Sequence record: OQ174507.1
Reading direction: 5' to 3' (one strand)
Source of the DNA: Escherichia phage REP8
Length of the DNA: 64,000 nt
The translations under genes and the position numbers were made by a program. The notes below the pieces were generated by a model, which ran no database searches, was not told the origin of the DNA, and was given only the letters and a program-made list of their open reading frames with translations. This document shows, piece by piece, positions 4,330 through 58,334 of this stretch. The number at the start of each line of letters is the position of its first letter. The stretch's first letter is position 1.

Positions 4330-4406
4330 CTCTGTTTAGCTCAGCTTGGTAGAGCGTTCCGTTTGGGGCGGTAAGGCCGGAGGTTCAAGTCCTCCAACAG
4401 AGACCA
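4330..4406 (+). tRNA. tRNA-Pro (anticodon TGG)
   Basis: acceptor CTCTGTT/AACAGAG, T-arm GGAGG-TTCAAGT-CCTCC, anticodon loop TTTGGGG, CCA encoded. Confidence 0.6.
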
Positions 4407-4413
4407 AATTAAT

Positions 4414-4491
4414 GTTCCAGTAGACAAAATGGTAAAGTCACCACTCTTTCAAAGTGGATATCTGAGGGTTCAAATCCCTTCTGGAACGCCA
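4414..4491 (+). tRNA. tRNA-Glu (anticodon TTC)
   Basis: acceptor GTTCCAG/CTGGAAC, anticodon stem CCACT/AGTGG with loop CTTTCAA, CCA encoded. Confidence 0.6.
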
Positions 4492-4582
4492 GTTTTGACA
4501 GAAGACCAATTACAGCAAACTTAATCTACTCATCTGACAAGAAATCGGACAAAGAAGATATTTGGTCTGGTCATTAAGAATT

Positions 4583-4656
4583 GCGGGTATAGAGAAAGGG
4601 CGTCTCACATGTCTCATTAGCATGGTATCGGCAGGTTCGACTCCTGCACCCGCCTC
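4583..4656 (+). tRNA. tRNA-Met (anticodon CAT)
   Basis: anticodon stem CATGT/GCATG with loop CTCATTA; T-arm GCAGG-TTCGACT-CCTGC; acceptor register uncertain. Confidence 0.5.
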
Positions 4657-4742
4657 CAAATTTACAGAAGACCGTTTACAGCAACATTTATTAAATTTTT
4701 AGCGGAAAAAATTGAAAGATACGGTCTGGTAATACTAAATAT

Positions 4743-4816
4743 GGTTAGGAAGCACATAAGGTATGTGCGGTCGCCTGTTAAGCGAATGGCACAGGGTTCG
4801 AATCCCTGACTAACCG
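4743..4816 (+). tRNA. tRNA-Asn (anticodon GTT)
   Basis: D-stem GCAC/GTGC, anticodon loop CTGTTAA, T-arm CAGGG-TTCGAAT-CCCTG; no CCA encoded. Confidence 0.55.
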
Positions 4817-4827
4817 CAAATTTAAAT

Positions 4828-4915
4828 GTGTCGTTATCCCGTAGATGGTAGCGGTGGGGACTGTAAATCCCTTGTCATTGAGACTCGGTAGGTTCGACTC
4901 CTACACGGCACACCA
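4828..4915 (+). tRNA. tRNA-Tyr (anticodon GTA), long variable arm
   Basis: 88 nt; acceptor GTGTCGT/ACGGCAC, anticodon stem GGGGA/TCCCT with loop CTGTAAA, CCA encoded. Confidence 0.55.
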
Positions 4916-4920
4916 ATAAA

Positions 4921-5006
4921 GGTTATGTAGTTTAATTTGGTTAAAATACTTCCACGTAAAAGGATATTGGGAGATGATGTGAGTTCAAGTCTCATCGTAG
5001 CCGCCA
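4921..5006 (+). tRNA. tRNA-like gene, anticodon arm unresolved
   Basis: 86 nt; good acceptor GGTTATG/CGTAGCC, T-arm GTGAG-TTCAAGT-CTCAT and CCA, but no canonical 5 bp/7 nt anticodon stem-loop found by hand. Confidence 0.35.
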
Positions 5007-5158
5007 ATTTTGAGAGGGCTATTTAGAACCTCCCTTAAAGGGTTCTTACGAGTATCCTTTAAAGGAGCAGAAGACCAAATTCAGCAAGTTACTTAAAATT
5101 TCAAGCCAATTCAATTTTGAAAAATTTAAAACTTGGTCTGGCTCAACAAATTTACAGA

Positions 5159-5283
5159 AGACCGTTTACAGCAAAACTTAAACAATCTATTTCTCGGTAA
5201 AGAAAAGGAGAAGGTTCGATTCCTTCACTCGGCAGATGTCGAGTTGGTGTAATGGTAGCACTTAAGATGATAAACAACGGTCT
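5159..5283 (+). ncRNA. circularly permuted tRNA-like module closed by an 8 bp stem (Y-RNA-like candidate)
   Basis: order is T-arm GAAGG-TTCGATT-CCTTC, acceptor 3' strand ACTCGGC, AGAT, acceptor 5' strand GTCGAGT, D-arm-like GGTGTAATGGTAGCAC; flanked by AGACCGTT (5159-5166) / AACGGTCT (5276-5283). Confidence 0.35.
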
Positions 5284-5286
5284 GGT

Positions 5287-5430
5287 AATTATCTTTGTAG
5301 ATAAGTTATTAAGCTTACCTGTGAGTATGCGACCACAAAGGGTGAAAGGGTAAATTCTAGATTTAAACCCAACAAGGCACATCGCTACAGACCTTAAGCA
5401 AGTCTGGGTAGCTTATCTACAAAGATAATT
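5287..5430 (+). repeat. structured element closed by a perfect 19 bp inverted repeat
   Basis: AATTATCTTTGTAGATAAG (5287-5305) pairs with CTTATCTACAAAGATAATT (5412-5430); ~106 nt interior holds sub-hairpins. Confidence 0.55.
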
Positions 5431-5434
5431 TAAT

Positions 5435-5510
5435 GGAAGTGTAGCAGAATGGTGATGCGGCAGACTTTTAATCTGACAGGCGATGGGTTCGAATCCCTCC
5501 ACTTCTACCA
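5435..5510 (+). tRNA. tRNA-Lys (anticodon TTT)
   Basis: acceptor GGAAGTG/CACTTCT, anticodon stem CAGA/TCTG with loop CTTTTAA, CCA encoded. Confidence 0.55.
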
Positions 5511-5514
5511 AAAT

Positions 5515-5590
5515 GGTTCAGTCGCAGATAAGGTAATGCAAGGGTCTCATAAGCCCTATGAATGTGGGTTCGATTCCCATCTGAACCTCC
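5515..5590 (+). tRNA. tRNA-Met or Ile2 (anticodon CAT)
   Basis: acceptor GGTTCAG/CTGAACC, anticodon stem AGGGT/GCCCT with loop CTCATAA, CCA encoded; 1-72 paired so not a bacterial initiator. Confidence 0.55.
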
Positions 5591-5593
5591 AAA

Positions 5594-5669
5594 GCTGTGA
5601 AAGCACATATGGATGTGCATTCGGCTGATAACCGAAAGGCAGAAGGTTCGAATCCTTCTCACAGTACCA
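5594..5669 (+). tRNA. tRNA-Ile (anticodon GAT)
   Basis: D-stem GCAC/GTGC, anticodon stem TTCGG/CCGAA with loop CTGATAA, T-arm GAAGG-TTCGAAT-CCTTC, CCA encoded. Confidence 0.65.
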
Positions 5670-5684
5670 ATTTCAATAAAGTTG

Positions 5685-5713
5685 TTGACATTGAGATGTG
5701 ACCACTTTATAGT
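5685..5713 (+). promoter_or_regulatory. sigma70-like promoter inside the tRNA array
   Basis: TTGACA, 17 bp spacer, TATAGT. Confidence 0.5.
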
Positions 5714-5917
5714 AACCTTAGTTTTCGTTGCGTAGCGTCTATTTTGCAAATTTAAAATAAATGCAAACGACAATGTTTTTCTGGCAGTAGCTTGATAGGC
5801 TAAACACCAGTGAGGTCTTCCAACCCCTCATCAAAGAATTTGGCGTACTAGCCCACGGTATGATTAATAAGGTGGGCATCTTTAAGGGCTTTCTAAGAGA
5901 GTCTTTAAAGATAATTA

Positions 5918-5999
5918 CGGGGCGTATCTCAGCTGTCTTCTAAACAGCCGTTAATCGAGTAAGTGGAGTATGCGGGTTCGAGTCCTGCCGCCTCGACCA
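5918..5999 (+). tRNA. atypical tRNA-like gene with Arg-type anticodon loop (TCT)
   Basis: 82 nt; acceptor CGGGGCG/CGCCTCG, perfect hairpin GCTGT-CTTCTAA-ACAGC, T-arm and CCA present, but only ~5 nt where the D-arm should be. Confidence 0.35.
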
Positions 6000-6238
6000 A
6001 TTTAGTTAGCAGATTACTTAGACGACCTTAGCGGGTCTTCCTGTAGGGAGGTGGTCTGTATCTCATGTTTTCCAGAACATGTAAATAATCTGAGAAGGGG
6101 CTTTACAGTGTTGAGATAATACGGTAAGCTTCGAATTATAGTATGGGACGATGTTAAGACTCTAAGGCATGAGCAACGGCTTCCAACACCGTTTCAAAGG
6201 GGTTCAACTCCTCCGTCACATGCCAAAGTCTTATTAGG

Positions 6239-6326
6239 GGTAGGTAGCGGCTAATGGTAGCCAAACTGTCTTGAAAACAGTTGCCACTGTAGAGATACGG
6301 TGAGGGTTCGACTCCTTTACTTACCG
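6239..6326 (+). tRNA. tRNA-Ser (anticodon TGA), long variable arm
   Basis: 88 nt; acceptor GGTAGGT/ACTTACC, anticodon stem ACTGT/ACAGT with loop CTTGAAA. Confidence 0.55.
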
Positions 6327-6483
6327 CCTAATAAGATTTAAAGCCAAGCTTCATTCGGATGTTGCTTTGGTATACCGCGTGTATTGTTGTACACATTGAT
6401 AAAACACCTAGTAGGTGTCACGGAGAAGAGATAATATCAAGCTCTCCAAAGGTTCTAGTCACCGGATTAAACAAGACTATGCA

Positions 6484-6505
6484 AAGACCTTTTTAGGTCT
6501 TTTTA
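6484..6505 (+). terminator. rho-independent terminator-like hairpin inside the tRNA array
   Basis: AGACC-TTTTTA-GGTCT followed by TTTTT. Confidence 0.4.
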
Positions 6506-6583
6506 GAGGGCTTCTAAGGTTATTACAGCTTGTTGTGGAACCTTGTTGCTTAGGTTCTTAGAAGTTCTCTAAAAAGACTTAAT

Positions 6584-6661
6584 GGGAGATTGACGGTAAT
6601 TGGTAAACCTATCTCGCTTAGAACGAGATGTTTGAGGGTTCGAATCCCTTGTCTCCTACCA
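6584..6661 (+). tRNA. tRNA with anticodon TAG (Leu by anticodon; short variable region)
   Basis: acceptor GGGAGAT/GTCTCCT, anticodon stem TCTCG/CGAGA with loop CTTAGAA, A73, CCA encoded. Confidence 0.45.
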
Positions 6662-6668
6662 AATTAAT

Positions 6669-6744
6669 GCAGGTGTAGCAAAATGGTTATGCGGCTGACT
6701 CTTAATCAGTAAGACGATGGGTTCAATTCCCTCCACCTGTACCA
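6669..6744 (+). tRNA. tRNA-Lys (anticodon CTT)
   Basis: acceptor GCAGGTG/CACCTGT, anticodon stem GCTGA/TCAGT with loop CTCTTAA, CCA encoded. Confidence 0.55.
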
Positions 6745-6750
6745 GACATT

Positions 6751-6826
6751 GGGGATGTAGTTTACATGGTTAAAACATAAGTTTTGCAAACTTAAGTACA
6801 GGGTTCAATTCCCTGCTTCTCCACCA
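6751..6826 (+). tRNA. tRNA-Ala (anticodon TGC)
   Basis: D-stem GTTT/AAAC, anticodon stem TAAGT/ACTTA with loop TTTGCAA, T-arm CAGGG-TTCAATT-CCCTG, CCA encoded. Confidence 0.6.
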
Positions 6827-6832
6827 ATTAGT

Positions 6833-6907
6833 GCATCCATAGTTTAAACGGGAAAATTACAGTCTTCCAAACTGAGGTTGAGGGTTCGATTCCCTCTGGA
6901 TGCTCCA
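6833..6907 (+). tRNA. tRNA-Gly (anticodon TCC)
   Basis: acceptor GCATCCA/TGGATGC, anticodon loop CTTCCAA, T-arm GAGGG-TTCGATT-CCCTC, CCA encoded. Confidence 0.55.
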
Positions 6908-6913
6908 AATAAT

Positions 6914-6990
6914 GCTGCTTTCGTATAATTGGCTATTACACATCCCTTGTAAGGATGGAAATGCAGGTTCGAGTCCTGTGAGCAGCACCA
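6914..6990 (+). tRNA. tRNA-Thr (anticodon TGT)
   Basis: acceptor GCTGCTT/GAGCAGC, anticodon stem CATCC/GGATG with loop CTTGTAA, CCA encoded. Confidence 0.6.
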
Positions 6991-6992
6991 AT

Positions 6993-7080
6993 TCAGAGGT
7001 CAAGTGAAAGACCGCTGGTGTCAACTGAAGACCGTAACAAATTCCACGGAGTTGAGTTAGCGGCACAACTTCAGACCTCT
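6993..7080 (+). ncRNA. long imperfect hairpin (candidate small RNA or processing element)
   Basis: nested stems CAGAGGTC/GACCTCTG, CCGCT/AGCGG, CAACT/AGTTG, CCGT/ACGG; contains a GAAGACCGT motif. Confidence 0.35.
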
Positions 7081-7085
7081 TTCAC

Positions 7086-7160
7086 ACTCGCTTAGTTTAT
7101 ATGGTAAAACATCACCCTTACAAGATGAAGAAAAAGGTTCAAGTCCTTTAGTGAGTACCA
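7086..7160 (+). tRNA. tRNA-Val (anticodon TAC)
   Basis: acceptor ACTCGCT/AGTGAGT, D-stem GTTT/AAAC, anticodon loop CTTACAA, CCA encoded. Confidence 0.5.
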
Positions 7161-7161
7161 T

Positions 7162-7239
7162 GTTCCAGTATCCCAATTGGCAGAGGATGCAAGCTCAAAC
7201 CTTGTATTAGTGACGGTTCGAATCCGTCTTGGAACACCA
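7162..7239 (+). tRNA. tRNA with anticodon CAA (Leu by anticodon; short variable region)
   Basis: acceptor GTTCCAG/TTGGAAC, anticodon stem GCAAG/CTTGT with loop CTCAAAC, T-arm GACGG-TTCGAAT-CCGTC, A73, CCA encoded. Confidence 0.45.
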
Positions 7240-7258
7240 ATTTTAAGAGGCTATTTAG

Positions 7259-7816
7259 ATGAGATATTTGAAGTATGCTTCATGGATTTTCCTAGCTTTA
7301 CTAGAGCCATTTGCAGCAACCCTAGCAGTCATCTTAGCACCTTTCGTAGTTCCATTCTACAGTGAGAAGAAAGGGCATCTACCTTTTGGATTCAGATGGA
7401 TGGAGACCTATGACAACCCGATTGATGGTGACAAAGGCCACGTTGAGAGATGGGCTAAGATTAGAAAGATTGGTAAGCTCGGTGTTTATATGCAGAGAGT
7501 TGGGTGGCTCTGGAGAAACAAAGCTTATAACTTCTCTTACCATGTATTAGGAAGAGATGTAAAAGATGTTACTAAGTGGAAAGGTAATATCAACGTAAGT
7601 TCTGACCCTGAAGATAATCAGACTGGTTATCTCCTAATGTGGAACAGTAATGCTTGGGGATTATTCGCTTTTATCCCATCAATTAAAGTCTTTGGTAAAC
7701 AGTTTTACTGGAGAATTTATATTGGATGGAAACTAAAAAGCGTTGTCCCAGAAGAAAGAGCATTCTCAAGGGAAAGAGTTATGTTGGCATTCTTTATTCA
7801 TCCACTGAGAAAGTAA
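7259..7816 (+). CDS. hypothetical membrane protein encoded inside the tRNA array
   Basis: 185 aa; AAGAGG RBS 8 nt upstream of ATG; hydrophobic N-terminus (WIFLALLEPFAATLAVILAPFVV). Confidence 0.45.
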   Translation: MRYLKYASWIFLALLEPFAATLAVILAPFVVPFYSEKKGHLPFGFRWMETYDNPIDGDKGHVERWAKIRKIGKLGVYMQRVGWLWRNKAYNFSYHVLGRDVKDVTKWKGNINVSSDPEDNQTGYLLMWNSNAWGLFAFIPSIKVFGKQFYWRIYIGWKLKSVVPEERAFSRERVMLAFFIHPLRK

Positions 7817-7824
7817 AGATTTAA

Positions 7825-7900
7825 AGGGGATTAGTTTACAAGGTTAAAACCTCGGTCTTTGAAATCGAAGAAGTTGGTTCAATTCCAACATCCCCCGCCA
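7825..7900 (+). tRNA. tRNA-Gln (anticodon TTG)
   Basis: anticodon stem TCGGT/ATCGA with loop CTTTGAA, T-arm GTTGG-TTCAATT-CCAAC, CCA encoded. Confidence 0.5.
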
Positions 7901-7902
7901 AT

Positions 7903-7981
7903 GCTCCATTACTCCAATTGGCAGAGAGGCCAGACTTAAAATCTGTGTTATGTATCGGTTCGAATCCGATATGGAGTACCA
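7903..7981 (+). tRNA. tRNA with anticodon TAA (Leu by anticodon)
   Basis: acceptor GCTCCAT/ATGGAGT, anticodon stem CAGA/TCTG with loop CTTAAAA, A73, CCA encoded. Confidence 0.45.
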
Positions 7982-7986
7982 AATTT

Positions 7987-8062
7987 AGCGGTATAGCATA
8001 ACTGGCAATGCAACAGTCTCTGAAGCTGTCCTATTAAGGTTCAAATCCTTATGCCGCTGCCA
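7987..8062 (+). tRNA. tRNA-Gln (anticodon CTG)
   Basis: acceptor AGCGGTA/TGCCGCT, D-stem GCAT/ATGC, anticodon stem ACAGT/GCTGT with loop CTCTGAA, CCA encoded. Confidence 0.55.
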
Positions 8063-8093
8063 CTTCTAAGGATTCTTGCGAGAGTCCTTAAAT

Positions 8094-8169
8094 GTGGCCT
8101 TATCATAAATGGTAATGACCCATGCTGTGAACATGGTCTATACGGGTTCAAATCCCGTAGGTCACCCCA
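8094..8169 (+). tRNA. tRNA-His (anticodon GTG)
   Basis: acceptor GTGGCCT/AGGTCAC, anticodon stem CCATG/CATGG with loop CTGTGAA, C73, CCA encoded. Confidence 0.6.
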
Positions 8170-8174
8170 ATTTA

Positions 8175-8251
8175 TAGTCCAAGTAGCTTATATGGTTAAA
8201 GCGCGTGTCTGAAAAACATGAGAAGAGGGTTCAAATCCCACTGGACTACCA
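8175..8251 (+). tRNA. tRNA-Phe (anticodon GAA)
   Basis: acceptor TAGTCCA/TGGACTA, anticodon stem CGTGT/ACATG with loop CTGAAAA; 3' end register uncertain. Confidence 0.5.
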
Positions 8252-8267
8252 ATTTCAAAGGTGCTTA

Positions 8268-9002
8268 ATGAAAGAGATGACAGAACAAGGTAAGGAGATT
8301 TTTAATCTCTTAAAAACCGGTAAAGGGTTTTCTAATCCCCTTATTACTGGTGCAGCAGTCCTCGGTGGAACCGTAGCTGCTTCTACATCACTTGTAAGCT
8401 CTATTAGTTCTGTAACAGACCCTACAATGAAGGAGAAACTTGTTACTGCTGGACTTACAACAGTCCTTCTAAACAGCTTTACAACAAGCCTTACAAGCAC
8501 TACAGCAACTACTAAGACCCTAACAGACTACGGTCAAAAGTCTATTGATGAGTTTTCATCACGTATGCAGGTAGCAAAGGGATACTCTAATGTTATGGGT
8601 GCAGCAGGAGAACAAGTTGGTTGTACACCATTCAGTGGTATTATGGGTGTTGCTACAGAGTATGGTCAAAAAGCTATTGACATGATGAACAGTACACTAG
8701 ATAGTGTTAATGGTGTGTTAAGTGACTTACAAGATGCTATTGATAAGGGTCTTGATACTGTTTCTGATTTAGCTGAGCAAGCTGTTAGTAAGATTAATGA
8801 AGGTATTTCGAAGATTACAGCTTATGCAGATGAAGTTGTGCAGATGATTGAAGAAGAAGCTGCCCTTATTGCAGAGTACCTTAAAACGAATATCAATGGG
8901 TTCTTAGCAGGTATCTTACCAGACTGGTTTGATGATGCTTGTAAAACTGGTGTGATTGAAACTATTGCAACACCAGAAATGAAGAGCGCATTACAGAAAT
9001 AA
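8268..9002 (+). CDS. hypothetical protein
   Basis: ORF-track frame 8205..9002 begins inside tRNA-Phe; in-frame ATG at 8268 with AAAGG upstream is the more likely start. Confidence 0.4.
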   Translation: MKEMTEQGKEIFNLLKTGKGFSNPLITGAAVLGGTVAASTSLVSSISSVTDPTMKEKLVTAGLTTVLLNSFTTSLTSTTATTKTLTDYGQKSIDEFSSRMQVAKGYSNVMGAAGEQVGCTPFSGIMGVATEYGQKAIDMMNSTLDSVNGVLSDLQDAIDKGLDTVSDLAEQAVSKINEGISKITAYADEVVQMIEEEAALIAEYLKTNINGFLAGILPDWFDDACKTGVIETIATPEMKSALQK

Positions 9003-9004
9003 AT

Positions 9005-9097
9005 GGAAGATTAACCCTAAAAGGTAAGGGAGCAGTTTGCTAAACTGCCAGTAGCTGAGAAATCGGTGTACCAGTTCAAGTCTGGTATCTTCCTCCA
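9005..9097 (+). tRNA. tRNA-Ser (anticodon GCT), long variable arm
   Basis: 93 nt; perfect acceptor GGAAGAT/ATCTTCC, anticodon stem GCAGT/ACTGC with loop TTGCTAA, CCA encoded. Confidence 0.6.
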
Positions 9098-9101
9098 ATT
9101 T

Positions 9102-9177
9102 GAATCCGTGACAGAAATGGCTATGTGCCTGTCTGCAAAACAGGTTTATAAGGGTTCGAGTCCCTTCGGATTCTCCA
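9102..9177 (+). tRNA. tRNA-Cys (anticodon GCA)
   Basis: perfect acceptor GAATCCG/CGGATTC, anticodon stem CCTGT/ACAGG with loop CTGCAAA, CCA encoded. Confidence 0.65.
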
Positions 9178-9621: not shown

Positions 9622-11223
9622 ATGGACTTAAATGCTGTTAAGCAGAAGCGAGTGGAAGATGTTAGGAAAGTCCTAGCTGGAGAGTTGGGGCTTTCTGATG
9701 AAGTAAAAGAAATTATCAAATCGTTCGGTAAAGACCCCTCTAAATTCCTTCCAACTCAAATTCTGACTTTATTAAGATATACACCAGACCAAGTTCGCCT
9801 CATCTTTAAATTGATGACTGATAAGAACTATGTAGCCCCTCAACCGGGTTCTCAAGAGGTGTTTTTAAACACTAATGCTGACTTGGTTCTCTATGGTGGT
9901 GCTGCTGGTGCTGGTAAGACTGCCGCATTGTTAATGGACTCTTTAAGATTTATTGAAGACCCTAACTATAATGCTGTATATTTCCGTCGAAATACAACAC
10001 AGTTACAAGGTGGTTTATGGCCTGCTGCAAAGAAACTATTTGGTAAGTTTGGTGGGATTCCTCATGAGCAGAAAATGACTATCACATTCCCTTCTGGGGC
10101 AACTATCAAGTTTACCTACCTAGAACTTGAAAAGCACGCTGAAGGTCATCAGGGTATTGAATACTCAGCTATTTACTTTGACGAAGGTACACACTTCTCT
10201 GCTTCACAGATTTCATACCTACAAACCCGTCTACGTTCTGGTGCTGAAGGTGATTCATACATGAAGATTTCCATGAACCCAGACAGAGACCACTTTATTT
10301 ACGATTGGGTAGAACCATTCTTAGACGAAGAAGGTTATCCAGACCCTGAAAAGTGTGGTCGTATTCGTTGGTATGTAATGAACGATGGTGTGATGGTTTC
10401 TGATTGGGAGAGAGACAAGATTCTTGAAATGTTCCCTCTTGAGATTCCTCAAACATACACCTTCATCTCTGGTACGATTGATGATAACCCAATTCTTGAC
10501 TTCTTAGAGCCAAAGTATCGCGGTAAGCTTGAAAACAACACTCCTGTAAACGTTGCAAGACTTCGTTTCGGTAACTGGAAGGCTCGTGCAGAAGGTTCAA
10601 ACTATTGGCAAAGACAATGGTGTGAAATTGTTGATTCACTCCCAGAAGATGTATTTGATGTTAGAGCATGGGACTTAGCAGCAACTTTACCATCTGAGGT
10701 TAACCCTAATCCAGACTGGACAGCAGGTGTTAAGATGGGTAAATCTAAAAAAGACGGTTGCTATTATATCATTGATGTAGTAAGATTTAGAGATAGACCC
10801 TCTGGAGTCGAAACACAAATTAATTTGACTGCTGAAAGTGACGGTAAGCGAACTGGTATTTTTATCCCTCAAGACCCAGGCGCTGCTGGTAAATCCTATG
10901 CAACATCCCTCATCAGGAAACTTGCCGAGAAAGGTTATCGCGCAAGAGCTAAACCAACAAATAAAGATAAAGTTACCCGCTTTGCGGGATTTTCTGCTGC
11001 TTCTGAAGCTGGACTTGTAAAAGTCTTGAGAGGTAGTTGGAACGAAGCTTACTTTCAAGAACTTGAAGGTTTTTGTGGTGATGGCAAAACTAAAGATGAC
11101 CAAGTGGATGCTACCAGTGATGCTTTCAACAGTCTTAACGAAGTTAAATTATTCAAGCCACCATCAATGGGTGCTCACACAGACTTAGTGAGAGGAAACC
11201 CATACGAGGGGCTTAGACGTTGA
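9622..11223 (+). CDS. terminase large subunit
   Basis: Walker A-like GGAAGAGKT and DEGTHF; GGAGG RBS 6 nt upstream of ATG 9622; ORF-track frame starts at 9607 (TTG). Confidence 0.75.
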   Translation: MDLNAVKQKRVEDVRKVLAGELGLSDEVKEIIKSFGKDPSKFLPTQILTLLRYTPDQVRLIFKLMTDKNYVAPQPGSQEVFLNTNADLVLYGGAAGAGKTAALLMDSLRFIEDPNYNAVYFRRNTTQLQGGLWPAAKKLFGKFGGIPHEQKMTITFPSGATIKFTYLELEKHAEGHQGIEYSAIYFDEGTHFSASQISYLQTRLRSGAEGDSYMKISMNPDRDHFIYDWVEPFLDEEGYPDPEKCGRIRWYVMNDGVMVSDWERDKILEMFPLEIPQTYTFISGTIDDNPILDFLEPKYRGKLENNTPVNVARLRFGNWKARAEGSNYWQRQWCEIVDSLPEDVFDVRAWDLAATLPSEVNPNPDWTAGVKMGKSKKDGCYYIIDVVRFRDRPSGVETQINLTAESDGKRTGIFIPQDPGAAGKSYATSLIRKLAEKGYRARAKPTNKDKVTRFAGFSAASEAGLVKVLRGSWNEAYFQELEGFCGDGKTKDDQVDATSDAFNSLNEVKLFKPPSMGAHTDLVRGNPYEGLRR

Positions 11224-40138: not shown

Positions 40139-40675
40139 TCAACTTAGTTTTGCAAACTCTCCGTGGAGTTTCATAGCAGCTTCACAGTAAGCTTTATGGG
40201 CTTCTTCAGGGGTGTCATGGTGACCTAAAAACATCTTCTTACCTTTATAACTTATCTGTGCGACCCACTTACCAGACTTCTTCTTAAGACTTACACCCTT
40301 GTACCCAGATTTATTGGTGACTGGTTTGCCTTTATTCCAAGCACTTTGAAAGTCATCTGCTTCCCTTAAGTTTACAATCCTGTTGTCAAGTGAGTCTCCG
40401 TTGATATGGTCAATGATACCTTTTGGCATCTTGCCATACACGTAAAGCCATGCGAGTCTGTGTGCTTTATGTGCTTTCTTGTCAAAATAGATACTAATCT
40501 GTTTATGACCACTTGAATCAGTCTGGATATTACCTGCCACCTTTCCTGCATAATTACTGTTAAAAACACTAACAGCTCTTGATTTACCTTCTCTGCGAAG
40601 CCAAGTAAAGACCCCTGTTTCGGGGTCATAGTGTAGTAGCTCCTTTAAACGTTTTTGTGAAATAAAATCCATCAA
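40139..40675 (-). CDS. HNH homing endonuclease with AP2 DNA-binding domain
   Basis: HRLAWLYVYG...GIIDHINGDSLDNRIVNLREA (HNH) followed by GYKGVSLKKKSGKWVAQISYKGKKMFLGHHDTPEEAHKAY (AP2-like); directly adjoins polymerase exon 2. Confidence 0.7.
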   Translation of the reverse strand: MMDFISQKRLKELLHYDPETGVFTWLRREGKSRAVSVFNSNYAGKVAGNIQTDSSGHKQISIYFDKKAHKAHRLAWLYVYGKMPKGIIDHINGDSLDNRIVNLREADDFQSAWNKGKPVTNKSGYKGVSLKKKSGKWVAQISYKGKKMFLGHHDTPEEAHKAYCEAAMKLHGEFAKLS

Positions 40676-41232
40676 TCAATGTACCTCATACCAACTCTTA
40701 CCAACCTTTGCTGTACCAGTTACAAGTGTTTCTTTCTTCAAACCTAAGTTTTTTGAAGCTTGCCCATACATCCAGTCAGCAATTGCTTTCATATCATGTG
40801 TCATATTCTCTGGGCATTCCCAACTATTTTCGTCGTGATATGCCAGAAGTAGTCTTGCTCCGATAGCTGGTTTTCGAGCATTCAGTTTTGTCAGGCCATC
40901 TTCACAGGCTTTTCTTGCTGCTAGGTTGATGGCCTCATTCTGAATCTGTGCTTCCGAACTCATCAGGAGGTAGTTCAGTAGTTTATGTGGAGATTTGCAC
41001 CATATCCATGCTCCAGCGACCCTGATATAACCACCCTTAGCAATTGAAGAATTCTTCCCAAAAACCTCTTCCAGAGCCTTTTTAGACGCCTTAAAATCGG
41101 CTTCTAAGCTATCAAGTAAACTCTTAATCTTCGGTAGACGCATATAGTAAGTCTGCTTAGTCAATGCACCTTCCTCTGTAGAAGCTGCCTTAATGGTTTT
41201 GGCAAACTTCTCATCACCTGCACCGAACAATA
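40676..41232 (-). CDS. DNA polymerase (family A, T7-like), exon 2
   Basis: LFGAGDEK matches pol A motif B (T7: FLYGAGDEK); LLLAYHDE matches motif C. Confidence 0.65.
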
Positions 41233-41500
41233 CATCTGGTCAATACACTCGCAAGGTGTACCAGTTCTCTTATGAACTTCTCCGCATTTCTACGGAGTGT
41301 CGGACTATATCACGTAGTAGTAATACTACCGTTGCACTTGGGAATGGTCATTAGCTTACCACCCTACTCTACTCAGTTCATACATTAAGTATGCTTTTCG
41401 ATAGTCTCTGAACGTTCCTCTCAAGAGGCTTCGCTGCTGATTACCGTATCTTCTCAGACTTAGGCTTCCAGCAATTCACAACGTTTTACATGCGCCACTG
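41233..41500 (-). ncRNA. group I intron in the DNA polymerase gene
   Basis: 268 nt; exon ends ATGCGT and intron nt 6-11 GCGCAT form P1; GTTCAGAGACTA (R) and GATATAGTCC (S); last nt G; opens with a stop in frame; no ORF inside. Confidence 0.6.
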
Positions 41501-43673
41501 ACGCATAAATGCCATTTTTGGCTTTCTTACGACCTTTTGTAATCTCGTGGAGAAGTTCCTCATCCTGTGTCTCCCTGCAACGAACAATATCCTCTTCTTT
41601 GTTAAGACCAAAGTAAATACTGTTCAGTGTATGCGCATCAGTCCCTGTGTAGACTTCATAGAGGTCGTTCTCAGCATCATAACGAAGATACTTATCAGTT
41701 TCTGGATTAAGATACTTATCGAGATGCTTGCAATAGTATCTGCCATCTTCTTGCTTAGTGAACTCTACTGACTCTTTACCCTCAGTTACCGCTTTGGTGA
41801 ACTCTTTATCACCCATAAAGTTACAAAGAAGAACAAGCTGTGCAGAGTTCTGGTCAACTGAAACGATATTAGTCCCTTCCTCGCAAATCCAAACCTCCCT
41901 CATAGGCGCTCCATAGACAGCAGCACCAGACGGTACGTTTACAATACCATATTGTGTCATACGTCCAGTTGAAGTACCAAACACCATTGCACCAGCACTA
42001 AGGCGACCATCAGGACGAATCTGGTTCAACCAACCTTTTTCATCATCCTTTGAGTTCTCAATAGTTCTGCGTCGGTGCATCAAAGTATAGTACTTAGCAA
42101 TCTTCTGTCCAAGCTCACCTTCAATCGTGTCATAAGATGATTCAGTAAGTTTTGGTGAAGTACGGATTAAGCAAGGCTCAAGCAAATCTGTGTATTTCTT
42201 CACAGACCAGTTATGTTCAATGTACTGTACACCTTCATGCTCAACATAGCTCAAACCACACCGCTCAACCATTTCCTGCCACTTAGGATGCTTTGTAATC
42301 ATCTTTTTATTGTCTTTGAAACGACAAACTTTAACAGGGCGACCATCTGAGTCTTTCTTGTAGTTCCAGTCATCTGGAATCCAACCAACTGATTTCAAGT
42401 AGTCTTTAACAACTGCTACCTGAGTCATACGAGAAACTTCAAACTCAATTGGTGTATACGGTGCATCAATCAAACCTGTGTAGCGACTCGACTCAAGCTC
42501 AAAGTGGTTAACAACGTGGCTGTTATAGTACTTCACAGTTTTGACTGTTTTTACTGGCTTCCAGTCTTTGCATTTCTTACCAATCTTTGCGTTCAACTCA
42601 TTGCAAATTGCACGAGCATCCTTCATTGCTACAAAACCTTCTTTGTACTCTTCACCAGTTACAGAGTTGGTTGGTGTATAGCAATTCCGCTTTTCAATGT
42701 TAAAAATCTTTGTAGTTGGCTTACCAAATGGCTTGATTTCATATGTCTGCATCTCACCGTTACGTACCTGTTGACGATACTTTGTCTTAGGGTACTTGGT
42801 AATTCTCTTCAGTCCATCTGCATGACCAAATGCTTCAACATACTCATTCCAAGCTTTTGCAAACTCTTCTCCAGTGACTTTACCTTTGGTCTTAATAGTT
42901 GGAGGTAGATGTGGTTCAACCTCTGAAGCAAGCTCATTAGTCAACTTGTCAAGTTCCTTTACATGGAACTCCATAAGTTCTTTATCAGCTTTCCAGCCAT
43001 TGATAGCTTGTTGACTCATCCAGAAAGATGTTTCTTTAGCTCGCATGTAGGTTTCATAGGTGTCTACGCCACACTTCTTTAGCTTCAGATATTCATTATC
43101 CAATGCACGTTTAGTTTTGGCGTTGATACGGATATCTTCTACAACACGAGTGAAGATTTCTGCATTCCACACACCCCAATGTTCAATCTCTGGTTTACGA
43201 ACACCAACACGAGCACCCCATGCAGCCAAGCCATGAGCACCTTTATAACCCTTTGGAGTTGGCCTATCCATCCACTGAACACGAGACTGGATAAGAGAAT
43301 CCTGAAAGAAATTACTCCACGGTTTACACTTTGGATTATCAAAGTTCCATAAATCAGGTGCAATGTGATTGAAAACCCACCAGTCATAACCGAGACCGTT
43401 ATGGATGCAAAGACGTTTTGCCTTTAACGCAAATTCAACACCTTCACGTAAACCACCCTTGATGTACTTAGTGTACTTGTGACCGAGGATAGGTTCATCT
43501 GTAAAGACCCATACAGGTGGCTCTTCATCGTCAGATTTATAGTCTGCGAAAGCCATTACGTGCACTTTAGTGAACTCAAGAAGTAAACCATCAGTTTCTG
43601 TATCACCAACTAAATGTAAGTTTTTAAAATCTACGTTTTCCATTTTTACTCCCTCTAAAATCATTAACCTCAT
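41501..43673 (-). CDS. DNA polymerase (family A, T7-like), exon 1
   Basis: N-terminal exonuclease motif LVGDTETDGL; ends ...RKKAKNGIYA in the middle of motif B. Confidence 0.65.
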
Positions 43674-56821: not shown

Positions 56822-58018
56822 ATGAACAAAGTACAGATTATTAAAAAGAATGGCTCACTCGAAGAACCTGATATCAAAAAAGTTTTAACAGCAGTCACAA
56901 AGTCAGCTAATAGGGTTGGGTATAAAGAACTCCCGCCAGATGTTACCCAAGCTCTTGAGTCAGCATTTATGAGGGTTCTGGTAAAATCCACTAAGCAGAA
57001 TAATTTACTCGTTTCAGTAAATGATATTCACAGTATTGTTGAGGGTGCTTTGGCAGAAGTCAATCACGAGATTTATGAGTCTTACTCAACATATAGAAAT
57101 TACCGTAAAGAGGTTGCTCAAAACTGGGATGAACTCTACCAGAAGACTAAAGATACACTCTTCTTAGGTGACCGTGAAAATGCTAATTTTGACAGCAGTT
57201 TAATTTCTACGAAAGGTTCAATTATCCGTGGTTACCTGACTAAAGAAATCTTTAAACAGTATCATCTAACACCAGAGGAACTTGAAGCCATTGAGAAAGG
57301 CTTTGTCTATATCCATGATTTAAGAGACCTGATTTTTGGTGGTATTAACTGTTGCCTGTTTGACATTGGTAAAGTACTAAAAGGTGGCTTTGAAATGTCC
57401 GGCATTGAGTACTGTGAACCTAAATCTGTACTGTCAGCGTTGCAGGTTATTGGTGACGTAGTACTTTCAGCAACTGCACAGCAATTTGGTGGTTTTACTT
57501 TAGCAGAGATTGATAAGGTACTTGTACCGTATGCGAAGAAGTCTCTACGCTATCATGCTGAGAAAGCATCATCTTATGGTATCCCTAAAGAGCATTACCA
57601 CAATTATGTCATGGAGCAGCTACAGATTGAACTGACTCAAGGTTTCCAGTCGCTTGAAATGAAACTAAACACTGTACCTTGTAGTCGTGGGGATTTTGCA
57701 TTTACAACTTTGACATTCGGGTTACTTGACTCAGACATGTCTAATGAAGACAACCGACTGCAATACATGATTGCAAGTACTCTCCTAGATGTTCGTATGA
57801 ATGGACAAGGTAAGAGTAAGAAGCCTGTTGTATTCCCTAAACTGGTTTATATTTATGACCAGAAGAGACATAATGAGAATATCTGTCAAGGCCACCTGTA
57901 CAGTAAAGCTATAGAGTGTTGCTCTAAAGCGATGTATCCAGATTTCTTAAGTGTATCTGGTCATGGTGCTGTAGCAGAAGCTTTTGAGCGTTCTGGTAAG
58001 GTTATTTCACCGATGGGT
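56822..58018 (+). CDS. nrdD: anaerobic ribonucleotide reductase, exon 1
   Basis: ATP-cone-like N-terminus; ends ...ISPMG with T as last exon nucleotide; an in-frame TAA opens the intron. Confidence 0.65.
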
Positions 58019-58334
58019 TAACAAGCTCTATAGCTCATCTAAAACGTGCCTAAACAGGGAAACTCTACAGATGTAGACAATCCTGTGCTAAATGATGTAC
58101 GATGTAAGAAACTATACAACATAGGGGTCTTACATGCCAAATAACTTCGAATATGAGTTTGGATACATCTAAATGCCGAACGACTAACCGTGATGAATGT
58201 AGCGGTGTAGGGTCAAGCGACTCGAAATGGTACGCTACTTAGAAATAAGTAGAAGATATAGTCTGGACTTACTGGCGACAGTAAGCAGCTTGAATAAAGC
58301 GGGGTAAGCGTAGCGAACTTACCTGAACAACAAG
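58019..58334 (+). ncRNA. group I intron in nrdD
   Basis: 316 nt; AAGATATAGTCT (S element), GACTAA (R/P7 region), last nt G, preceding exon ends in T; no ORF inside. Confidence 0.6.

Follow-up and report, generated by a model that had tools for sequence, protein, structure and literature searches.

A 268-nucleotide group I intron within motif B of the DNA polymerase gene of Escherichia phage REP8

Results

Organization of the polymerase locus

The analysed DNA, hereafter called the window, is a stretch of 64,000 nt from Escherichia phage REP8 (OQ174507.1). It is 100% identical to Escherichia phages REP9-12 (Felixounavirus) and corresponds to positions 10053..74052 of REP11. The program-made ORF list contains two minus-strand polymerase ORFs, at 41460..43673 and 40676..41230, and the locus consists of the following features:

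41501..43673, minus strand: DNA polymerase exon 1, with 43673 as the start of the longest ORF and 43643 as the GenBank start; its final nucleotide is the T that opens the Leu725 codon
41233..41500, minus strand: group I intron of 268 nt without an ORF, IA2-type architecture, identified by Rfam RF00028, an exact 268-bp indel and a structure test
41460..41462, minus strand: TAA at intron nt 39-41, the first stop reached in the reading frame of exon 1, which ends translation of unspliced RNA
40676..41232, minus strand: DNA polymerase exon 2, with the rest of motif B, motif C (YHDE), the C-terminal ...SWYEVH and the stop codon
40139..40675, minus strand: free-standing homing-endonuclease gene with HNH_3 and AP2 domains (Pfam), directly 3' of the polymerase stop

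The segment between the two exons belongs to the group I introns, as a first-pass annotation made from the sequence had proposed. An Rfam scan of the whole window matches RF00028 (Intron_gpI) on the minus strand over the full model, positions 1-253, with 61.7 bits (gathering score 50; E 3e-13). The alignment, 41280..41563, is shifted: it begins 63 nt within exon 1 and halts at 41280, because helices P9.1 and P9.2, which lie outside it, are absent from the Rfam model. These ends were discarded, since intron-less alleles place the indel at exactly 41233..41500. The loci of phages bumzen and CECAV_FGS030 are exactly 268 bp shorter (4533 versus 4801 bases) and carry a single uninterrupted polymerase CDS of 906 aa. 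The polymerase of Felix O1 and JohannRWettstein is likewise uninterrupted, and the exact 268-bp indel is thus seen against four intron-less genus members, which bears out the boundaries that had been read from the sequence. The Felix O1 genome paper reports a polymerase of 906 aa and no introns (PMC3185647).

In the sense direction, exon 1 ends with ...ATTTATGCGT, that is ...GGC ATT TAT GCG T with the last base at 41501. The intron runs from 41500 to 41233, starts with CAGTGGCGCATG and finishes with ...ACCAGATG; its last base, G at 41233, is invariant across intron-containing alleles. Exon 2 starts at 41232 with TA TTG TTC GGT GCA GGT GAT GAG. Joining 41501 to 41232 restores the reading frame (GCG T|TA TTG TTC) and yields ...GIYA-L-LFGAGDEK, with a predicted ligated junction of ...TATGCGT|TATTGTTC.... 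The same peptide, ...GIYALLFGAGDEK..., spans this position in intron-less alleles, in agreement with the in-frame splice expected at the outset. An alternative 3' splice site at G41236, leading to ...YAYVLFG, was rejected, as its extra residue is missing from intron-less alleles and from T7. The first-pass annotation had the intron open with a stop in the exon frame, and this detail needs correction: the frame of exon 1 continues for 13 codons (SVAHVKRCELLEA) into the intron before the TAA at 41462..41460. The intron was rightly described as empty, the ORF list holding no sense-strand ORF of at least 40 aa wholly within it.

The insertion site in the polymerase

The predicted spliced polymerase comprises 909 aa from the first ATG and 899 aa from the annotated start. 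Its best solved relatives are T7 gp5 structures, and against gp5 residues 517-621 it aligns without a gap across the junction, K719, Y723, L725 and F727 corresponding to K522, Y526, F528 and Y530. Pfam DNA_pol_A (cut-off 34.3 bits) matches the spliced product with 53.2 bits; exon 2 alone reaches 25.9 bits and exon 1 alone gives no match. Motif B (RxxxKxxxYxxxY/F; RKKAKNGIYALLFG) and motif C (HDE; YHDE) are both intact in the spliced protein. The intron breaks the Leu725 codon after its first base, and the O-helix aromatic residues Y723 and F727 lie on either side; the proposed placement in motif B of a family A polymerase therefore stands.

We take T7 K522 to be the textbook equivalent of E. 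coli Pol I K758, and the insertion therefore falls at approximately residue 764 of Pol I. Phage polymerase introns with a published site occupy 674 (SPO1, SP82, Bastille, Pf-WMP3), 676 (phiL7) and 881 (PhiI, W31) (PMC3428280), and the predicted position near 764 differs from each of them. Few polymerase positions are on record for phage group I introns, and the present one, in the O-helix of motif B, is a further addition to them.

Secondary structure of the intron

The secondary structure was drawn by hand and comprises P1, P3 to P9 with P5a, P6, P6a, P7.1/P7.2, P9.1/P9.2 and P10; it has no P2. All of the following elements are read from the minus strand:

41490..41506, minus strand: P1, formed by exon AUGCGU (41506..41501) and the internal guide GCGCAU (41495..41490, intron nt 6-11)
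41496..41500, minus strand: 5' strand of P10, intron nt 1-5 (CAGUG), pairing with exon 2 UAUUG (41232..41228)
41417..41428, minus strand: minimal P6a hairpin CCUC-UUGA-GAGG, intron nt 73-84
41402..41413, minus strand: R element GUUCAGAGACUA (GTTCAGAGACTA at 41413..41402), which holds the P7 5' strand and the bulged A94
41340..41393, minus strand: insertion between P7 and P3', made up of P7.1 (nt 108-122), a GUA linker and P7.2 (nt 137-161)
41302..41311, minus strand: S element GAUAUAGUCC (GATATAGTCC at 41311..41302), which holds the P7 3' strand
41237..41297, minus strand: P9 (GAAA loop), P9.1 and P9.2, followed by AUG and the terminal omega-G at 41233

The first-pass annotation had placed P1, its splice-site U.G pair, both the R and the S element and the terminal G correctly. 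P1, including the splice-site pair U41501.G41495, is invariant in all eight intron-containing variants, and the five pairs of P10 are standard in each of the eight; intron-less alleles carry UGUUA or UACUG at the exon 2 position of P10. G134-U135-A136 lies directly 5' of P7.2, and P7.1 and P7.2 are without variation across the eight variants. Extra helices P7.1/P7.2 between P7 and P3', joined by G-U-A, serve as the criterion for subgroup IA2 (PMC3428280). A P7.1/P7.2 insertion at this place is the hallmark of subgroup IA, and the arrangement of these helices assigns the predicted fold to IA2.

The structure is conserved among natural variants. All 79 base pairs of the hand-drawn model are standard in all eight variants, with core helices P3-P8, the P/Q and R/S pairings and the P3/P7 pseudoknot in place, compared with 28-48% standard pairs in a control in which the 3' partners were slid by 1-3 columns. 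Two changes are compensatory, at P6a 73/84 (C-G here, U-A in other forms) and P8 176/183 (U-A to C-G), and three further pairs show a one-sided change that keeps wobble pairing. The other 12 variable positions are in loops or junctions; loop L5 changes from GAGA to GUAA and is still a GNRA loop. All substitutions within helices preserve pairing, which argues for selection on the RNA structure. Two compensatory pairs were reached in 55 of 500 shuffles, and with close relatives at 95-100% identity as the eight variants and a model built on the intron sequence itself, the support from covariation is modest. Unconstrained minimum free energy (MFE) folding returns P4, P5, P7.1, P7.2, P9 and P9.1, with an MFE z-score of -1.7 for the whole region.

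Predicted splicing of the polymerase transcript

We assign a probability of roughly 92% to the reading of 41233..41500 (minus strand) as a phage IA2-type group I intron, 268 nt long, in a Felixounavirus family A polymerase gene. From its sequence, the intron is expected to be self-splicing. Alternatively, it might be a ribozyme-dead relic or an intron dependent on a protein cofactor, with rare or assisted splicing, or the two ORFs might be translated apart to form a split enzyme. This would accord with the annotation, since all GenBank records inspected give the gene as two separate 'DNA polymerase' CDSs or as hypothetical proteins and never as one spliced gene, and with the unremarkable MFE z-score. 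We nevertheless consider it very improbable. Exon 2 has neither an in-frame ATG nor a Shine-Dalgarno sequence, and the TTG annotated as its start encodes the second leucine of LLFGAG; a search for a promoter or terminator that could give exon 2 expression of its own returned nothing relevant, the intron itself holding no promoter-like site. Moreover, the split falls inside the O-helix, from Y723 to F727, no core helix is broken, the G-binding P7 included, with conservation in at least 44 records at 96-100% identity, and the pair-preserving pattern of helix substitutions likewise speaks against a relic. The phages themselves are deposited as isolates with named hosts; REP9-12 are isolated phages with E. 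coli as the named host, from which we infer a functional polymerase. The split annotation inflates gene counts and breaks an essential enzyme in approximately 110 deposited genomes, many of them from phages proposed for biocontrol or therapy.

Under the self-splicing reading, the polymerase gene would be transcribed as a single RNA in which the intron folds into P1, P3-P9, P7.1/P7.2 and P9.1/P9.2. An external guanosine would attack 3' of the U in the U.G pair of P1, P10 would position exon 2, and the exons would be ligated after the terminal G. The resulting mRNA would encode a polymerase of 899-909 aa with a junction identical to that of intron-less relatives.

Population states of the insertion site

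The site is polymorphic for presence and absence of the intron. All record counts given here are among the matches listed and include duplicate RefSeq/GenBank entries. The polymerase region has approximately 262 matching records among the matches listed, and the intron sequence matches 136 phage records, of which about 113 are Felixounaviruses with an identity of at least 80%. The site is empty in Felix O1, bumzen, JohannRWettstein and many others, and at least 44 records contain the ORF-less 268-nt form at 96-100% identity. A form of about 805 nt (24 records among the matches listed) has a long P6a stem whose loop contains an ORF of 160 codons; the ORF matches Pfam Endonuclease_7 with 71.4 bits. 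This 160-aa Endo VII-type (DHHRN/HNH-like) ORF sits at intron nt 77-80, the UUGA loop of the minimal P6a hairpin in the window. The intron ORF of VpaE1 is frameshifted. In garuso, GEC_vB_BS and others, a 311-nt form keeps the P6a stem, the ORF having been deleted between direct repeats GACT(A)CCTAA(A/G)CAAA. The P6 region of the window differs from that of the ORF-bearing form at about seven positions within nt 47-84, and nt 85-268 are nearly identical; in view of these differences, the 268-nt form is not a simple recent deletion of the ORF-bearing P6a. Across about 260 Felixounaviruses, empty, ORF-less, endonuclease-bearing, frameshifted and deleted states exist side by side, an unusually complete picture of the homing cycle at a single site, and the set could serve for studying intron and endonuclease dynamics and the competition among co-infecting phages.

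Some records at this locus are irregular. GEC_vB_BS (MW006475; locus L005, 3843..3845) lacks 991 bp equivalent to 40208..41198 of the window, which is most of exon 2 together with the HNH gene. Exon 2 loss was considered as a property of the 311-nt form and dropped: garuso has the same intron form with exon 2 intact, and the loss is therefore specific to this record, whose gap probably reflects faulty assembly or a defective genome. Two records named 'Campylobacter phage A132/A126' (MG065664 and MG065668) are approximately 96% identical to this E. coli/Salmonella Felixounavirus region including the intron and the HNH gene, which suggests that the 'Campylobacter' label reflects mislabelling or contamination.

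Sequence footprints around the site

The exon sequences flanking the intron differ systematically between the two kinds of allele. Every intron-containing allele reads TATGCGT|TATTG (TAT GCG T|TA TTG TTC), compared with TAC GCC CTG TTA TTT or TAT GCA CTA CTG TTC in intron-less alleles, which encode the same protein. In the latter, C replaces the splice-site U (CTG or CTA Leu codon), and the complements of P1 and P10 are altered. The corresponding site sequences are TACGCCCTGTTATTTGGAGCC for the Felix O1 type and TATGCACTACTGTTCGGTGCA for the JohannRWettstein type, and the fused exons with intron-type flanks would read TATGCGTTATTGTTCGGTGCA. No allele of precise loss, with intron-type flanks fused and the intron gone, was found; the best contiguous match to the junction is 89.5% among the matches listed.

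Recombination has left its mark at the same place. Along the polymerase gene, the window and bumzen differ by 2-5% per bin, rising to 20-33% from -30 to +60 nt of the site, a pattern in which gain and loss of the intron by recombination look alike. This recoded stretch of approximately 90 bp is a short conversion patch and points to past homing. S.Kent 1-2-1 is 84% and 78% identical to the window in the two exons, and its intron core has 12 differences in 268 nt (about 95.5% identity). Polymorphism, a conversion patch and an intron better conserved than its exons are the signatures expected of homing with co-conversion of the flanks, and we infer such a history for this intron lineage.

On a larger scale, the 3' third of the polymerase gene (40676..41850, minus strand), counted from approximately 340 nt 5' of the intron site as far as the stop codon, differs by 20-48% at the nucleotide level between genus members, and the 5' 1.8 kb differs by only 2-5%. 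The 3' third is a mosaic hot spot flanked by two endonuclease-associated sites.

Proposed spread of the intron, and the HNH-AP2 gene downstream of it

We postulate that the lineage with the Endo VII-type endonuclease gene in P6a spread among Felixounavirus polymerase alleles by homing and co-conversion of the flanking exons. The copy in the window would then be a passive passenger, which moves only if another element supplies the cut. As the intron interrupts the presumed target site, its own polymerase allele should be immune to cleavage. The copy in the window has no homing endonuclease of its own, and tblastn found no homologue of the Endo VII-type intron protein anywhere in the REP11 genome; likewise, a second copy of the Endo VII-type gene was sought in the window and the rest of REP11 and none was found. 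The earlier expectation that any mobility would depend on an endonuclease acting in trans is consistent with these data.

A possible enzyme of this kind is the HNH-AP2 protein encoded at 40139..40675. In a collaborative homing scheme, it would cut intron-less alleles at or near the site and mobilise the ORF-less intron, a scheme known for F-CphI and the psbA intron of a cyanophage and for T4 MobE and the nrdB intron. An ORF-less intron beside a free-standing endonuclease gene is the published architecture for trans homing (PMC3984707; T4 mobE, PMC2790892), and REP11 contains no other candidate endonuclease for the intron. The two elements also co-occur strongly: among the matches listed, and with kinship ignored, 31 records have both, the intron is alone in 13 and this HNH-AP2 allele in 10, and about 208 records have neither. 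However, they lie 0.56 kb apart in clonally related genomes, and linkage alone can account for the association. In bumzen, CECAV_FGS030 and others, a 98%-identical HNH-AP2 gene adjoins an intact intron-less site of the Felix O1 type, which is evidently not destroyed, and in Felix O1 as in many intron-less phages the slot is taken by alleles of the gene. Conversely, EC6, Sl26 and VpaE1 have the intron without the downstream HNH gene, and the conversion patch of about 90 bp between the window and bumzen stops short of it. The spread of the intron is, moreover, already explained by the endonuclease that sister copies encode. We therefore regard collaborative homing by HNH-AP2 as unlikely, and spread of the lineage by the endonuclease-bearing sister form as the simpler reading.

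It also appears quite unlikely that the ORF-less intron and the adjacent HNH-AP2 gene are a working trans-homing pair alongside the cis-acting Endo VII-type form at the same site. If they were, Felixounaviruses would be a natural system in which cis and trans intron mobility compete for one polymerase target, at a position near Pol I residue 764 from which no phage intron has been reported. A strict alternation between the intron endonuclease and the downstream HNH gene was considered and dropped: VSe11 has both, garuso combines the 311-nt form with the HNH gene, and EC6 and Sl26 have the intron ORF only. Other Felixounaviruses, Felix O1 and further intron-less phages among them, have divergent HNH-AP2 alleles at this position, with only 40-50% aa identity. 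The C-terminus PEEAHKAYCEAAxKLHGEFAKLS and the last 70-80 nt are nevertheless common to all alleles, and this suggests that recombination has a fixed boundary there.

Relation to known introns

That family A polymerase genes of phages can contain group I introns has been known since the SPO1 case (1990), and P2-less IA2 introns in T7-like polymerases since 2004. The polymerase intron described here is a well-known kind of element and changes no concept. It is most like the polymerase introns of PhiI, W31 and Pf-WMP3, with which it shares the family A polymerase host, IA2 architecture, P7.1/P7.2 joined through GUA, the absence of P2, a short P10, the U.G pair at the 5' splice site and the final G; in this type, the endonuclease ORF, when present, lies in P6a. 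The sites differ (881 in PhiI and W31, 674 in Pf-WMP3, about 764 here, in E. coli Pol I numbering), the host here is a Felix O1-type myovirus and the copy in the window has no ORF. The endonuclease of the sister copies is of the Endo VII type, in contrast to the I-HmuI-like HNH enzymes of the PhiI/W31/Pf-WMP3 group.

The introns of SPO1, SP82 and Bastille (I-HmuI, I-HmuII, I-BasI) are a precedent for spread through a nicking endonuclease with co-conversion of the exon flanks. They differ in their site (674), their occurrence in Bacillus phages and the HNH enzyme that each encodes, and our search of phage records with the intron detected no sequence similarity to them. The T4 introns in td, nrdB and nrdD belong to subgroup IA2 as well, in other host genes and another phage family. 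The endonuclease of the T4 nrdB intron is defunct, and it is MobE, encoded next to it, that moves this intron in trans (PMC2790892). Like T4, the phage studied here also has an intron in nrdD (58019..58334). The coexistence of empty, ORF-less, ORF-bearing and degenerate states in the Felixounavirus population resembles the homing cycle of the T4 introns.

Parts of this system have surfaced in the literature before. Fang et al. 2018 list Endo VII-motif (DHHRN) proteins of EC6, JH2 and FSL SP-010 as 'intron-encoded', and F-CphI likewise has an Endo VII motif (PMC6083498). For EC6 and FSL SP-010, the intron in question is the ORF-bearing form of the one studied here, at the same site and with a core approximately 97% identical. 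That work classified the proteins and left the intron, its host gene and its site undescribed; the copy in the window is without the gene in question. The genome note on SPJ41, a phage that carries the same 268-nt intron form, mentions 'two introns' from an ncRNA scan without locating them (PMC9951933). In the literature we found only such oblique mentions, and no explicit description of the host gene, site, structure or population states of the polymerase intron. Novelty is low, because the endonuclease-bearing form was already called 'intron-encoded' in 2018.

Other introns in the window and in related phages

More distant relatives of the intron were left out of the site comparison, as they reside in other host genes (N4-like RNAP2, Vibrio phage terminase). 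In the N4-like phages ZQ2 and Moonfish (Schitoviridae; L009 506..704, L010 3001..3117), an intron core of about 72-79% identity lies in the RNAP2 subunit gene with an HNH ORF after it, and neither record carries an intron annotation.

The window contains a second group I intron, 58019..58334 on the plus strand, which has 316 nt and no ORF and splits nrdD (anaerobic ribonucleotide reductase). Its Rfam match, 57911..58285, scores 55.4 bits. Compared with the intron-less phage adrianh, exon 1 ends with ...GGGT and the intron starts with TAA and ends with G. In relatives, the nrdD site is empty, holds the 316-nt form or holds a form of about 740 nt with an HNH endonuclease. Furthermore, Rfam places 23 tRNA genes in an array at 4330..9174 on the plus strand, as is typical of Felix O1-like phages.
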